Assembly: GCA_024275315.1 (NCBI GenBank)
Contig: JAJRZK010000027.1
Span: 68,714-132,713 of the forward strand
Direction: 5' to 3'
From: Nitrospirota bacterium
GTDB lineage: Bacteria > Nitrospinota_A > UBA7883
Length of the DNA stretch: 64,000 bases
In this document: positions 4,223 to 9,463 of the stretch, piece after piece
How positions within the stretch are numbered: the stretch's first letter is position 1
Layout of the letters: every line of letters begins with the position of its first letter
Made by a program: the position numbers and the translations under genes
The notes under the pieces: model-generated
What the model was told of the DNA's origin: nothing
The model's input: only the letters and a program-made list of their open reading frames with translations
Database searches by the model: none

Positions 4223-5479
4223 TCAATTCTTCCGTTTTCCGCTGTCTTGTGTTTTCACAGGGAGTTCGATTACGAAACGGCTCCCCTCGCCGGGGGCGCT
4301 TTCCACCCGGATCCTGCCTTTATGCGCTTTTACAGCCATATGGCAAAAGGCAAGCCCCAGCCCAGAGCCCCCTCGAGCTTTTTTCTCTCCCACCTGGTGG
4401 AATTTTTTGAAAATGCTTTTCTGAAGCTCTTTGGGAATACCGGAGCCCTGATCCGTTACGAGGATTTCCACGCAACCCCTGTCCGGCCGGTTTAAAGCTG
4501 TCAGCGTCACCTCGCTATTCTCGGGCGAATGTTCCGACGCGTTTATCAGCAGATTGGCCAGCACCCGCTCCATCAGGGGCCGGTCGGCGAAAAAGACAAC
4601 CTCATCCCCGGGCATGTCGGCTCTCGTTCTTATCTCATTTAGCTTGAACACATTCCTGAGCTTTCCCAGCGCGGTGTCCACAAGCTGTTTCGCATCGATT
4701 CTCTCCGGCTTGAGCTCTATCCTCCCCTCTTCCATCCTGCTGATGTCCAGGAGGTTGCCGATCATGCGCGACAGATCGCTGGTCCCGATTTCCGCAGATT
4801 CCAGGCAGGAAAGGGAAAATTTATCCAGGTCGCTCGACTTTATCATATCTATGTTCGCCCCGATTTCCTGGAGCGGCCCTTTCATGTCGTGTATGACCAT
4901 GTGTATCAGGTCCTGCTTCAGCTTTTCGAGCTTGCGAAGCTTTGAATTGGCTTTTTTGAGCTTGTTCCTTTCCCGCCTGATATCCTCGGTAAGTTTGGCG
5001 TTTTCCACCACCGGGCTTATTCTGCGCACCCATTTGTCCAGTATGACGGCTTCTTTTTTAGTGTACGGCCCCGAATCGATCTTGTCTGAAATGTTGAATA
5101 TCCCCACAACGCCCCCCTGGGTCTCGATAGGGGAGCTGATGAACATATTTTCCCCATTGCCACCAGGCCTTCGCATAAGACGCGCCAGCTCCGGCTGATC
5201 TTTTTTCGAGTCGCCTGTGCGGATGATTTTTCCGTGTCGATAAGCGCGAAGAGAGATCGAATCCTCACTGAGCTTTTGATGTTTACCGGTCAGGTCAAGG
5301 TTGGTCGAGGCTCTGACAACCAGGGTTTCATCCTCGATTATCATGATAGATCCGGAGCGCGAATTCATTTTCCCGAGAATAAACTTCAACAGGTCGCTCA
5401 GTTTCATATCGAAACTTCGTGACGTATCCATCATTATGTTCATCGCCCTTACAAGGGCTCTGGCTTCTGTGGAATCCAT
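4223..5479 (-). CDS. GAF-domain sensor histidine kinase
   Basis: N-terminal GAF, coiled coil, HisKA H-box (HDMKGPLQEI), HATPase_c (N, G1 and G2 boxes: NLLINASEHS, DQGSGIP, GGSGLGL). Confidence 0.82.
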   Translation of the reverse strand: MDSTEARALVRAMNIMMDTSRSFDMKLSDLLKFILGKMNSRSGSIMIIEDETLVVRASTNLDLTGKHQKLSEDSISLRAYRHGKIIRTGDSKKDQPELARLMRRPGGNGENMFISSPIETQGGVVGIFNISDKIDSGPYTKKEAVILDKWVRRISPVVENAKLTEDIRRERNKLKKANSKLRKLEKLKQDLIHMVIHDMKGPLQEIGANIDMIKSSDLDKFSLSCLESAEIGTSDLSRMIGNLLDISRMEEGRIELKPERIDAKQLVDTALGKLRNVFKLNEIRTRADMPGDEVVFFADRPLMERVLANLLINASEHSPENSEVTLTALNRPDRGCVEILVTDQGSGIPKELQKSIFKKFHQVGEKKARGGSGLGLAFCHMAVKAHKGRIRVESAPGEGSRFVIELPVKTQDSGKRKN

Positions 5480-5663
5480 ACTCCGCCTGAAATGAAATCG
5501 CCTTATTGTCCGCCAGCCATCAATAATACCATCTGCCAGATCGATTAATACCTGAAATATGCAATTTCATGACCTGTTTTTCAAAACGCCGATACCGGAA
5601 TTCCGGTTCACGGTCCGTACAAATAACCTTACAAAAGCAAGCGGATCAGCTAAGGAGAAGATC

Positions 5664-5909
5664 ATGAAACTTTCAGCTATGATTATCGCATGCGCCATGG
5701 TTATGGCGTTTTCGGCCGGATGCGCCTCTACCAACCAGCCCAAATCGGCCGCCACGGGCGCGGCTGTCGGGGCTCTTGCCGGCGCCATAATCGGCCACCA
5801 GTATGGAGAAGGCGGGCGTGACAAAGGCGCCTTGATCGGCGCAGCGCTTGGCGGTGGGGCGGGCCTGTTGTATGGCCAGCGGGAAGATCGTATCCACACA
5901 CGAAATTAG
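5664..5909 (+). CDS. glycine-zipper (YMGG/17 kDa-antigen-like) lipoprotein
   Basis: Internal ATG start at 5664 gives MKLSAMIIACAMVMAFSAGC lipobox, then GAAVGALAGAIIGH...GALIGAALGGGAGLL glycine-zipper repeats. The 5559 start of the track ORF lacks a signal peptide. Confidence 0.6.
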   Translation: MKLSAMIIACAMVMAFSAGCASTNQPKSAATGAAVGALAGAIIGHQYGEGGRDKGALIGAALGGGAGLLYGQREDRIHTRN

Positions 5910-5957: not shown

Positions 5958-6026
5958 CGCCGGGTGGGACGCGTTTATCCGCCAGCGAGGTTGACCATTA
6001 AATAACGGCAAGTCTATAATTGCCGG

Positions 6027-6440
6027 ATGTGTCCACAACCATCCAAGCAAGACAAGCTTTCGCATGACAAGGAACTTGTCGCGCAAATCATCCGGAACAA
6101 CGACGAGTCATGGTCGGTGTTCGTGGAAAAATACACGGATTGGGTTCTGTACAAATCAAAGGAATGGTGCACAGCTCACTGCCATTACACCGCAGGACAA
6201 CACTTTTGCGGGTTGACCAGCCTGTCCCTGCAACGGTCGGGGCGCCATGTCCACACGGAAATCCAGGAGTGCGACGAAGGTATGGACACGTATATCTGGA
6301 TTTTCGAACAACTGCGCAGGAGGATAAAAAAATATTCGGGGAAAAACAATTGTCTCCTGTCCACGTTCGTGTGGACCATCCTGAACTCCCGGGAACTGCA
6401 CATCGACTGGTTGAGATGGAAATATGGAAGAATTTTTTAG
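6027..6440 (+). CDS. ECF-type sigma-70 family factor, N-terminal part (region 2), separated from region 4 by a +1 frameshift in a T6 tract
   Basis: ELVAQIIRNNDESWSVFVEKYTDWVLY (region 2.1/2.2-like) and FVWTILNSRELHIDWLRWKYGR (region 2.3/2.4-like). The ORF ends in the TTTTTT tract at 6433-6438. Confidence 0.6.
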   Translation: MCPQPSKQDKLSHDKELVAQIIRNNDESWSVFVEKYTDWVLYKSKEWCTAHCHYTAGQHFCGLTSLSLQRSGRHVHTEIQECDEGMDTYIWIFEQLRRRIKKYSGKNNCLLSTFVWTILNSRELHIDWLRWKYGRIF

Positions 6441-7050
6441 CGCGTCGGCGTCCAAACGTCTGCCGGTGGCGATTCAGAAATTACCCGCGCCGGAGCAAAA
6501 GGCTTTCGTATTGCTCCGGATGAGGCGGGGTGAATCTGAAATTTCCAGGGAGCTGTCCATCCCGCTTGACGAGGCCAGGGCTGTCGTCAGGAGGGTGCAG
6601 GAGGCGTTGATCAGGAGCGGGTCGCTTGACCTGATCAAAAGCCCTCTCTTTTTCCAGATAGACCACCCTGCAAAGGAGGAAGACAGCCCCGGACGGCCTG
6701 TGCAGTTGGCCAAAGAGCAGATCGATATGGAGGATCGGATCGCACTGGACAGATTCTATGACGCGCTGAAAATCTCACTGGACCAGCTTCCCAAACAAAG
6801 CAGAAGACTGCTGGACCTTTGGTTTAACAAAGAGATGAAAGCAAAGGATATTATCATATTTTACAAAAACATAGGCGTTGATATTTCAAGTAAAAAATCA
6901 ATAGATGAAACTGCCGTTAACGATGTTTTTTACGCTCTGGAAAAAAATATCAAGGAATTGCTGGAGCTTGTCCGTACAAATATGAAACATGACAGGATAG
7001 AGCTTACACACAGCGGCCTGAAGACAATATTGAACGAAACCGGAGTTTAG
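6424..7050 (+). CDS. sigma-70 region-4 (HTH) part of the same sigma factor, with a C-terminal extension
   Basis: LPAPEQKAFVLLRMRRGESEISRELSIPLDEARAVVRRVQ is a typical ECF region 4.2. Removing one T from the T6 tract fuses it in frame to 6027..6440. Confidence 0.6.
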   Translation: MEEFFSASASKRLPVAIQKLPAPEQKAFVLLRMRRGESEISRELSIPLDEARAVVRRVQEALIRSGSLDLIKSPLFFQIDHPAKEEDSPGRPVQLAKEQIDMEDRIALDRFYDALKISLDQLPKQSRRLLDLWFNKEMKAKDIIIFYKNIGVDISSKKSIDETAVNDVFYALEKNIKELLELVRTNMKHDRIELTHSGLKTILNETGV

Positions 7051-7084: not shown

Positions 7085-8002
7085 ATGATGCACCCGAAGC
7101 TTTCCGAGTTGATCGCATATACCGATCCCGGCATGGAAGACGACGCGCGCGAGCGTGTCCGGGCTCATCTGGGGTTCTGCGCCCAGTGCATGGACCGGCT
7201 CATCTCGTTGCAGACTTTCAGGACAGCCGTGCGGACAGACGGGGAATCTGTAATTAGACCTTTCGAGTTGACACAAGAATGTGTCCCGACCGAAATAATG
7301 GGAGATTTTCTCGGAAACCGCCTCCCCCGGGCCGAACGTGATAGTTACTCCGAGCATGTAGTTGATTGCGACATATGTTTTGAAAGAGCCGCCTATTTCA
7401 CCCGCTCATCGGAGAAAATGGCAGAGGGTACGCTTCATATGGAAAAAACGCCGCAACGATACATAAAAGCGGTGGACAAAACATTCGAGGAGACAAAACC
7501 GAATCCGCGCAAAACAACCACCGTGGATTTGTTGCGAAGTTTTATGTCCAGGCCCATCACCGCATACGCACTTGCGGCCAGCTTCGTTTTCTTCCTGGCC
7601 TACACCAACATTTATAATCGCGCCCACATCGTAAAGCTCGATTCGAGCCAGGTATTCACCCTTTATGAAGCCCCGAAACAATCAGGCCCATCGTTCGGCT
7701 TTTCGGACGCGGGCCGCAAGCTTGGCGTGATCGAGGCCGGGCTTTATGTAAAGCTGACCGGCGACGGACAGGTGGTGTTCGGATGGAAACATGTCAAGGG
7801 CTCCGATGAATATCATTTCTCGCTGGTGGAGCTTCGGCCCACAACTCCCCTGGAAATCCACAATGTCAAAACCTCCTACCCTGGCGTTACCATCGGGAAA
7901 TCTTTTTTACAGTCCGGCAAAGCCTATCGATGGAGAGTCACCGGGGAAAAGGGGCCTGGTAAAATATTTGTCGCCACTGGACAATTCGTTTTTATTAACT
8001 AA
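7085..8002 (+). CDS. anti-sigma factor (zf-HC2 putative zinc finger, single TM helix, periplasmic domain)
   Basis: HLGFCAQCMDRL HxxxCxxC motif at the N-terminus, TM helix ITAYALAASFVFFLAYT, and a position immediately after the sigma factor gene. Confidence 0.7.
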   Translation: MMHPKLSELIAYTDPGMEDDARERVRAHLGFCAQCMDRLISLQTFRTAVRTDGESVIRPFELTQECVPTEIMGDFLGNRLPRAERDSYSEHVVDCDICFERAAYFTRSSEKMAEGTLHMEKTPQRYIKAVDKTFEETKPNPRKTTTVDLLRSFMSRPITAYALAASFVFFLAYTNIYNRAHIVKLDSSQVFTLYEAPKQSGPSFGFSDAGRKLGVIEAGLYVKLTGDGQVVFGWKHVKGSDEYHFSLVELRPTTPLEIHNVKTSYPGVTIGKSFLQSGKAYRWRVTGEKGPGKIFVATGQFVFIN

Positions 8003-8017
8003 CCTTACGAGGCTCAC

Positions 8018-9463
8018 ATGAAAAGCCCGTATGCCCTGTCGACCTCTCTTGTTGCGGCGCTACTGGTCATCATGGATCCCGCTGCCGGCCTGGCGCAAAT
8101 CACCCCCCCTGACGCAGGAAAACAATATTGGTTGCAAGGCTCTACAAAACTCGCCGACGACGATCCAAGATCGGTGCGCGCCCACCAGATTTTCGACAGG
8201 ACGCTGGCCGCCGCCGACAAGCGCCCGGGGCCTTCTCCGGAGCTGATAATACTGGATGAAGAAGGATTCCCCTGGGCGAGGTCGTTGCCCGATGGATCGA
8301 TCATCGTCACCCGGGGCGCGCTCGACATATGTTTCAGGGCGAAGACCGTCTCCGATGGAGACGCCAGGCTGGCTTTCGTGATCGGGCACGAGCTGAGCCA
8401 CCAGGTAAATGGCGATTTCTGGCATTTCTTTTTCTACCAGGGGGTTCATCCCGATTCCGCGAAAGACGAACAAACCAGAAAAACGCTGGAGCAGGTGATA
8501 AAAATCGCAAAAAGGTCGGATTCCGTCTCCGCAAAGGAGTTGCAGGCGGACCAGTACGGCCTGCTTTACGCGTCCCAGGCCGGGTATGACGTGAAAAGAA
8601 TCGTCGATATCGACACCAATTTTTTCCGGGAATGGACCGCGGCTACCAGCCCCGACCTGCTCGAAGGAATCGTGATGCAGGTAAACCATCCGAAAATAGA
8701 AGAGCGCTCCGCGGTGGCGCTGTCGACCTTGCGAAGGGTGGTCGAAAAAATCGAGGTGTTCGAAAAGGGTGTCGAGGCGTATAAAAAAGCAAGCTACACC
8801 GCCGCCATGTATTACTTCAAGGATTTTCTTTCCGTATACCAAAGCAGGGAAGGCTTTAACAACCTGGGGCTTGTCCATTACCAGATGGCGGCGGAGGAAT
8901 ACGCCAAATGGAAATCCGAAACGCCAATGTTCCGGCTGTCGCTGATAATAGACCCGACAACCCGCGCGCGCAACGCCTACAGACGCAGAAGATCGCCGGG
9001 ATCTTCCCTCACACGCAGGATGCGGCCGGAAAACGCGCATGAATCGCAGTTCCTCAAACACGCCGCCGCCGCCGCCGGTTATTTCCGAGAGGCGTGGCAA
9101 AGAGACCATACCTACGCCATGGCGCACAACAACCTGGCCTGTGTGCATTTTCTGAAATCAGAATACGCCAGCGCCGTCGGCGAGCTCGACAAGGCCATCT
9201 CGATCGACCCCGGCGTCCCGGAGGCTTTCAACAATCGCGCCGTAGCCTACCTCAAAATGGGCGAGCAACTGCGGGTGAACCTGGACAAAAAAGTGGAATC
9301 AAACCTTCTGGCGGCGTTGAAACTAAGATCCGATTACGAATACGCGCTGTTTAACATGGCGTATTTTCTTATGCAAAAAGGCAGGAACCGGGAAAAACAG
9401 GCGTATAAGAACCGCCTGGCAAAGCTCCACCCCGGATCGGAGCTACTTGCGCTGATACACTAG
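8018..9463 (+). CDS. secreted M48-family zinc metallopeptidase with C-terminal TPR repeats
   Basis: Signal peptide, HEXXH (VIGHELSHQ), and TPR-like helical repeats in the C-terminal half. Apparently co-operonic with the sigma/anti-sigma pair. Confidence 0.8.
   Translation: MKSPYALSTSLVAALLVIMDPAAGLAQITPPDAGKQYWLQGSTKLADDDPRSVRAHQIFDRTLAAADKRPGPSPELIILDEEGFPWARSLPDGSIIVTRGALDICFRAKTVSDGDARLAFVIGHELSHQVNGDFWHFFFYQGVHPDSAKDEQTRKTLEQVIKIAKRSDSVSAKELQADQYGLLYASQAGYDVKRIVDIDTNFFREWTAATSPDLLEGIVMQVNHPKIEERSAVALSTLRRVVEKIEVFEKGVEAYKKASYTAAMYYFKDFLSVYQSREGFNNLGLVHYQMAAEEYAKWKSETPMFRLSLIIDPTTRARNAYRRRRSPGSSLTRRMRPENAHESQFLKHAAAAAGYFREAWQRDHTYAMAHNNLACVHFLKSEYASAVGELDKAISIDPGVPEAFNNRAVAYLKMGEQLRVNLDKKVESNLLAALKLRSDYEYALFNMAYFLMQKGRNREKQAYKNRLAKLHPGSELLALIH

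Follow-up and report, generated by a model that had tools for sequence, protein, structure and literature searches.

A conserved pair of overlapping genes in Nitrospinota probably encodes a sigma factor divided into two subunits

The DNA analyzed here (the window) is a stretch of 64,000 nucleotides (nts) of contig JAJRZK010000027.1 from a Nitrospirota bacterium (GTDB lineage Nitrospinota_A; assembly GCA_024275315.1). Two open reading frames, ORF1 and ORF2, overlap on its forward strand between positions 6027 and 7050. The original prediction, made from the letters of the window, took them for a single sigma factor gene resembling the extracytoplasmic function (ECF) type and split by a frameshift in a run of six T's (T6). 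When we compared the locus with its relatives, we found two genes, each maintained in its own frame, whose products are probably the two parts of one sigma factor. The features at the junction are as follows (positions are those of the window).

6027..6440, forward strand: ORF1, putative sigma-2 domain subunit (regions 2.1 to 2.4), 137 amino acids (aa); start ATG at 6027, stop TAG at 6438-6440, C terminus ...WLRWKYGRIF.
6165..6281, forward strand: Cys/His-rich insert inside the putative sigma-2 domain, ORF1 aa 47-85, WCTAHCHYTAGQHFCGL...ECDEG.
6424..6440, forward strand: overlap of ORF1 and ORF2, 17 nts; the ORF2 ATG sits in the ORF1 Tyr-Gly codons TAT GG.
6433..6438, forward strand: the T6 run (TTTTTT), read as Phe plus stop in ORF1 and as Phe-Phe-Ser in ORF2.
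6424..7050, forward strand: ORF2, putative sigma-4-type subunit, 208 aa; start ATG at 6424, stop TAG at 7048-7050, in the +1 frame relative to ORF1.

The sequence is as it had been described: the two sigma halves are in different frames that meet at T6. Removing one T from 6433-6438 gives a continuous reading (...WKYGRIFSASASKRLP...), and the protein so obtained is indeed sigma-like, ORF1 plus ORF2 being colinear with sigma-family proteins. The ATG at 6424 is the sole start codon in the ORF2 frame between a TGA at 6409-6411 and a conserved KRLP motif. The T6 run itself is unremarkable within the window, where runs of at least six number 43 for T and 62 for A. Its presence at the junction is explained by dual coding: the same nucleotides specify Phe and the TAG stop of ORF1 and Phe-Phe-Ser of ORF2. 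No Rfam family matched anywhere in the window.

We searched for homologs using the hypothetical fused ORF1+ORF2 protein as the query. About 25 proteins of 207 to 212 aa, mostly of exactly 208 aa, were 48 to 100% identical to ORF2; all those with a source name came from Nitrospinota metagenome-assembled genomes. The same query retrieved two ORF1 homologs ending in ...WKYGRVF and three distant proteins of 329 to 337 aa, which covered 91% of the query. At the DNA level, the comparison included 11 species-representative genomes and nine further contigs. Each of the 18 Nitrospinota loci, and each of two more distantly related ones, had an ORF1 homolog (58 to 70% identical) directly 5′ of an ORF2 homolog, and in all 20 the ORF1 stop fell at the same codon, right after ...W(K/R)YGRx(F/Y). 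A sigma-2-like and a sigma-4-like sequence are thus carried on separate polypeptides, encoded by adjacent genes, in 20 of 20 loci. A start codon heads ORF2 in every locus, either ATG or TTG with GGGAGG.

The 17-nt overlap was present in 14 of the 21 loci, the window counted. Nine loci have the overlap with exactly six T's and TAG (the window, L002, L003, L005, L006, L008, L018, L019, and the P0002 contig); among these, L018 is an independent assembly, 90% identical to the window in DNA, with an identical T6-TAG junction. The same overlap occurs without T6 in five loci: L014 (ATTTATTAG), L015 (GTCTATTAG), L017 (GCCTTCTAA), L020 (GCATATTAG), and L021 (GTCTTTTAG). The genes do not overlap in the remaining seven (L001, L004, L007, L009, L010, L011, and L016), where spacers range from 2 to 60 nts and all three frame relations are found. 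The junction is TAA, 4 nts, ATG in L001; TTC TGATGATG in L010; and TGA, 8 nts, ATG in L011 and L016. In L007 both genes are in one frame across an in-frame stop (TAA CAG ATG), and in L009 (TAA GGGAGG, 8 nts, TTG) ORF2 has its own Shine-Dalgarno sequence, GGGAGG, and a TTG start. At L001 and L009 the +1 frame is closed by a stop, and the genes therefore could not be fused there by any frameshift. The 60-nt spacer of L004 consists of a tandemly duplicated junction (∼77 nts, L004:3921-4045), in which 30 of 42 positions are identical in register versus 14 or fewer in other registers. This duplication appears to have turned an ancestral 17-nt overlap into a spacer, which would be one route by which overlaps are resolved.

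Divergence in both genes is concentrated at third codon positions. Across loci, the mean pairwise nucleotide identities at codon positions 1, 2, and 3 were 0.73, 0.80, and 0.46 for ORF1 and 0.65, 0.76, and 0.41 for ORF2. Between the window and L018 alone, the differences at the three positions numbered 12, 5, and 23 in ORF1 and 11, 13, and 43 in ORF2. Because of this third-position bias, we conclude that ORF1 and ORF2 are each under purifying selection in their own frame.

The pair belongs to a larger protein family in which most members are single polypeptides. When 1.84 billion cluster representatives were searched exhaustively with the profile, 602 clusters matched at an E value of ≤1e-3, and we classed 191 family proteins (the best 150 of the 602 clusters plus earlier matches). 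Of these, 104 are fused proteins of about 300 to 350 aa that span the whole profile, 53 are split C-terminal subunits of about 200 aa that start at position ∼123 of the profile, and a further eight, of the ORF1 type, end at or before position 125. Nearly all split forms begin M-x-x-x-(F/I)-S, which is the signature of the 17-nt overlap; the N terminus MxxFF(S/N), the sole one compatible with T6, occurs in 15 of the 53 split-type C-terminal subunits. ORF1 and ORF2 together align colinearly with the fused proteins, and the point of division, between GR(V/L) and DExN-KRLP, lies in the short connector immediately following region 2.4.

The fused sigma-like proteins of about 320 to 340 aa (for example, P0028; the JGI label is "sigma24 family protein") are true homologs of the split pair, with 33 to 36% identity over 91% of ORF1+ORF2. 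They have in common with it three invariant Cys residues, the KRLP motif, both of the helix-turn-helix domains described below, and an adjacent gene for an anti-sigma factor with a double zf-HC2 motif. They differ from it in being single polypeptides, in having TAC as the junction Tyr codon, so that there is no internal ATG at that point, and in the protease encoded downstream, which is a caspase-like Peptidase_C14 instead of an M48/TPR peptidase. When the C-terminal regions were placed in a neighbor-joining tree, the split forms grouped at one end with a few fused sequences interspersed. Such a tree is crude, and we tentatively read it as pointing to one or a few old fissions, with the overlap as the ancestral state.

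Sigma-2 domains bind the β′ clamp helices of RNA polymerase and melt the −10 element. An AlphaFold model of the fused relative P0028 (predicted local distance difference test [pLDDT], 81) had only sigma factors as its top Foldseek matches. The alignments extended over 309 to 331 columns for SigD and SigB, about 300 for FliA and WhiG, and about 190 for SigW, AlgU, and RpoE. Isolated sigma-2 structures were also matched by the model of a fused relative. ORF1 is 44 to 48% identical to the modeled fused proteins and, through this homology, is predicted to have the sigma-2 fold (regions 2.1 to 2.4). The Cys-rich insert lies between regions 2.1 and 2.2. Three of its residues, C52, C61, and C82, do not vary among 17 sequences, split and fused together, and a fourth potential ligand varies, being C48/H51 in Nitrospinota and CDEC in L020 and L021. 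The insert is a candidate metal or redox site inside the sigma-2 domain.

ORF2 consists of a first helix-turn-helix domain (aa 7-65), an acidic disordered linker (aa 66-100), and a second helix-turn-helix domain with a C-terminal helix (aa 101-206). By sequence the domains are of the sigma-4/LuxR type, and the C-terminal one is the better match to region 4. The structure model of ORF2 matches sigma-4 domains, and a fused relative scores above the Pfam Sigma70_r4 cutoff (29.3 versus 24.1 bits); on this modeling, ORF2 is predicted to carry a sigma-4 helix-turn-helix. The part of ORF2 that had been set apart earlier as a C-terminal extension of ∼120 aa appears instead to be a second sigma-4-like helix-turn-helix domain and is arguably the principal one. 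The first domain occupies the position that sigma-3 has in group 3 sigma factors.

We think it probable, then, that this locus encodes a sigma-70-family factor that was divided by an ancient gene fission into two polypeptides, making it a two-subunit sigma factor. The genes and the promoter that surround the pair are listed here.

5991..6020, forward strand: putative sigma-70-type promoter from a consensus scan; TTGACC, spacer of 18 nts, TATAAT.
7085..8002, forward strand: predicted membrane anti-sigma factor, 305 aa, with two H-x3-C-x2-C motifs and one transmembrane segment.
8018..9463, forward strand: predicted exported M48 metallopeptidase with C-terminal TPR repeats, 481 aa, from Pfam matches and a HELSH motif.
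5664..5909, forward strand: predicted glycine-zipper lipoprotein gene, the upstream neighbor; Pfam Gly-zipper_YMGG (E value, 2e-10), lipobox FSAGC.

The promoter sequence matches the consensus at 11 of 12 positions. Its −10 element ends 6 nts before the ATG of ORF1, and a leaderless transcript is therefore predicted; the layout TTGAC(C)-N17/18-TATAAT-N6-ATG recurs in most Nitrospinota loci. From this predicted transcription start the housekeeping holoenzyme would make a leaderless mRNA.

The original prediction of a zf-HC2 anti-sigma factor followed by an M48/TPR protease held up in Pfam. The anti-sigma gene is the next one after ORF2 in all 18 Nitrospinota loci. Its product matches zf-HC2 (PF13490) with an E value of 1.6e-5 (25.3 bits versus a cutoff of 22.2), and the NCBIfam RsrA and anti-sigma models match it too. 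The two H-x3-C-x2-C motifs stand in tandem at aa 28-35 (7166-7189) and aa 91-98 (7355-7378), and 15 of 16 split loci retain both, as does the fused-family locus L012. The single transmembrane segment, at aa 158-176, is the hydropathy maximum. Each of the two ZAS motifs may serve one sigma subunit or one helix-turn-helix domain.

The peptidase matches Pfam Peptidase_M48 (E value, 6e-9) and TPR_11 (E value, 2e-10), has a HELSH (HExxH) motif beginning at aa 124, and starts with a hydrophobic, signal-like segment; its gene is found downstream in most Nitrospinota loci. Genes for caspase-like Peptidase_C14 and FGE-sulfatase-domain proteins follow the sigma gene in fused and distant split relatives (L012:5685-6998, L013:7384-8808, L020:3745-5640, and L021:1405-4213). 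A protease near the sigma gene is a recurring theme, although the type of protease differs between relatives.

On the other side of the pair, the glycine-zipper gene is also found upstream of the sigma locus in L002, L003, L006, L008, L014, and L018. A sequence in front of it, GGAAT-N14-CGTA (5597-5619), was considered as an ECF-type target promoter and dropped, as it was common only to the 90%-identical L018. Upstream of the module, a divergent gene (4223-5479, reverse strand) encodes a predicted protein of 418 aa that by sequence resembles a GAF-type sensor histidine kinase; a homolog of it adjoins the sigma locus in L005 and L008.

If the pair is a two-subunit sigma factor, it could work as follows. 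ORF1 and ORF2 would be cotranscribed from the housekeeping-type promoter as a leaderless mRNA. ORF2 would be translated from its own ATG, 17 nts before the ORF1 stop, most likely by coupling through termination and reinitiation. An AGGTGG sequence provided by Arg-Trp codons lies five bases before the ORF2 ATG in 9 of 13 overlap loci, and in many relatives it would assist ORF2 initiation. The sigma-2 subunit and the helix-turn-helix subunit would then come together on core RNA polymerase and recognize promoters as a single activity. The membrane anti-sigma factor, with its two zf-HC2 motifs, would keep one subunit or both sequestered pending an envelope signal, and this signal may involve the exported M48/TPR peptidase.

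Several points weigh against the two-subunit interpretation. ORF1 gave no significant match to Sigma70_r2 and none to any Pfam family at an E value of ≤1, a PDB profile search with it found nothing at an E value of ≤10, and hhalign of ORF1 against E. coli RpoE returned a probability of 4% over 27 N-terminal residues only. Because ORF1 is not identified by sequence, the sigma-2 call rests on structure. That ORF1 and ORF2 bind each other, bind RNA polymerase, and function jointly is something we infer. The Shine-Dalgarno-like element before the ATG at 6424 in the window is weak (GAGATGG), which makes the efficiency of ORF2 translation doubtful. Either helix-turn-helix domain of ORF2 may be the reader of the −35 element, and the first may be a stand-in for sigma-3. 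Finally, low-level +1 frameshifting may take place at UUU-UAG in the T6-bearing members.

Among the alternatives, the one that survives best is that the two proteins do not form a sigma factor together: ORF2 would be a lone helix-turn-helix regulator and ORF1 a modulator that binds RNA polymerase or the anti-sigma factor, or else one of the two would be a decaying remnant. The resemblance of the ORF2 domains to LuxR/GerE-type DNA-binding domains and the lack of a significant Sigma70_r2 match in ORF1 fit such an explanation. Nevertheless, we consider it unlikely. The genes are adjacent in all 20 loci and translationally linked in most of them, the majority of family members carry these domains in one protein and in unchanged order, and a sigma-type anti-sigma gene adjoins the pair. 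As both genes are under purifying selection, neither is a remnant.

A programmed +1 frameshift of the prfB type would produce some fused sigma factor in the T6 lineages, with the UUU in the P site slipping while UAG is in the A site. Sites of the UUU-stop type are shift-prone, by analogy with release factor 2 (RF2) frameshifting. The sequence UUU-UAG-C allows perfect +1 re-pairing with a stop in the A site, and a protein made by the shift would have the colinear layout of the fused relatives. The window also resembles prfB in detail, having UUU UAG C where prfB has CUU UGA C, with the downstream frame at +1 in both. Against this, the site is not conserved: it is replaced by TAT-TAG in L014, L015, and L020, by TTC-TAA in L017, by TTC-TGA in L010, and by the seven nonoverlapping junctions. 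The +1 frame meets a stop in L001 and L009, and the L007 genes share one frame, so that several orthologs could not be fused by a +1 shift. There is no conserved Shine-Dalgarno-like stimulator 3 nts upstream, where GGAAGAA, GGCCGGG, GGCAGAG, and GGGCGGA are found instead. Unlike in prfB, the downstream frame has a conserved start codon of its own. Since the shift site is not conserved among orthologs, the family does not depend on frameshifting, and we regard a programmed shift as quite improbable.

Slipped-strand phase variation at T6 was also raised in the original prediction; the form of it considered here, a tract that turns the sigma factor ON (fused) or OFF (truncated), has very little probability left. 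It is true that T6 lies exactly at the domain junction and that a −1 change would fuse the frames. However, the tract is short, one of the 43 T runs of at least six in the window. All nine tract-bearing loci have exactly six T's and the same frame relation, and neither a T5 or T7 allele nor the fused product of one was present among the retrieved loci and the 191 family proteins. Lineages without the tract retain the split, and dual coding accounts fully for the T6.

The last alternative, an error of sequencing or assembly in T6 that artificially frameshifted a single sigma gene of ∼340 aa, appeals to a common class of error, homopolymer indels, and to the continuous frame with spacing like that of the fused relatives that appears when one T is removed, but it is next to untenable, because an identical T6-TAG is present in the eight other independent assemblies named above, the split also occurs without the homopolymer (five loci) and with spacers (seven loci), divergence is third-position biased in both frames, and the read-through junction YGRx(F/Y)S is found in 0 of the 191 family proteins. 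Ortholog comparison, the check that the original prediction had itself proposed, thus gave genuinely separate genes, in L009 even with a separate GGGAGG-N8-TTG initiation region.

The two-subunit interpretation makes the family useful in several ways. From its roughly 50 split clusters and over 100 fused relatives, the fission point, the overlap architecture, and the later remodeling (for example, loss of the overlap via duplication of the junction, or gain of a separate Shine-Dalgarno sequence) can be read directly. The pair is a natural experiment on whether a holoenzyme can dispense with the connector after sigma-2 and still function, and synthetic biology might use it as an orthogonal AND-gate part. 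There is also a caveat for annotation, in that pipelines and readers may flag conserved overlapping gene pairs of this kind as frameshifted pseudogenes.

The description of the locus as ECF-like proved only loosely appropriate. Like ECF (group 4) factors such as RpoE and SigW, it has an N-terminal D..LV..I..GD..AW..FV motif in ORF1 and an adjacent cognate zf-HC2 (ZAS) anti-sigma partner. In contrast, the ECF model TIGR02937 gave 15.4 to 17.2 bits versus a cutoff of 42.9, every other curated cutoff was likewise missed, and there are three domains rather than the two of ECF architecture. The likeness to group 3 factors (FliA, SigB, and SigD) is in the full-length P0028 model, which aligns over ∼300 columns with SigD and SigB. 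What sets the pair apart from both groups is the extra helix-turn-helix at the sigma-3 position, the Cys-rich insert in sigma-2, and the division of the protein.

A conserved natural two-subunit sigma factor is of a known but rare kind, and this pair is not described in the searchable literature. No Nitrospinota split sigma factor was found there, and split, bipartite, or heterodimeric sigma factors were represented by SigO-RsoA and synthetic intein-split ECFs only; a 2021 ECF reclassification paper lists split sigma factors as unexplored (PMC7826278). The known system nearest in kind is SigO-RsoA (YvrI-YvrHa) of Bacillus subtilis, which three papers describe as having sigma-4 and sigma-2 functions on separate polypeptides that are encoded by adjacent cotranscribed genes and are both needed for activity (PMC7826278, PMC8103513, and PMC10028694); a table in PMC10141391 assigns the SigO-RsoA domains differently from these papers. 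No SigO- or RsoA-named family was among the Pfam and NCBIfam matches at an E value of ≤1, a result to be read with the limits that the existence of such models is unconfirmed and that no reference sequences were compared. A more ambitious proposal is that the Nitrospinota pair is a second, independent, and ancient two-subunit sigma family whose fission has a role in regulation: the sigma-2 subunit would sense metal or redox state through a Cys3(+1) site, the double-ZAS membrane anti-sigma factor would hold the helix-turn-helix subunit, transcription would require both inputs as in an AND gate, and a minor, +1-frameshifted fused isoform might be a third species in the T6 lineages; as a whole we find this conceivable but rather doubtful.

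The likeness to SigO-RsoA, as those papers describe it, is that sigma-2-like and sigma-4-like parts are on two polypeptides from adjacent genes, as in ORF1 and ORF2. The gene order differs: here the sigma-2 gene comes first, colinear with the fused relatives, whereas the Bacillus operon is written there as yvrI-yvrHa, with the sigma-4 gene first. Compared with SigO-RsoA, the small subunit in Nitrospinota would be a complete sigma-2 domain of 137 aa with a Cys-rich insert, and the large subunit would have two helix-turn-helix domains. The neighboring gene encodes a membrane zf-HC2 anti-sigma factor, a function assigned here by sequence. Lastly, the Nitrospinota pair has abundant fused relatives.

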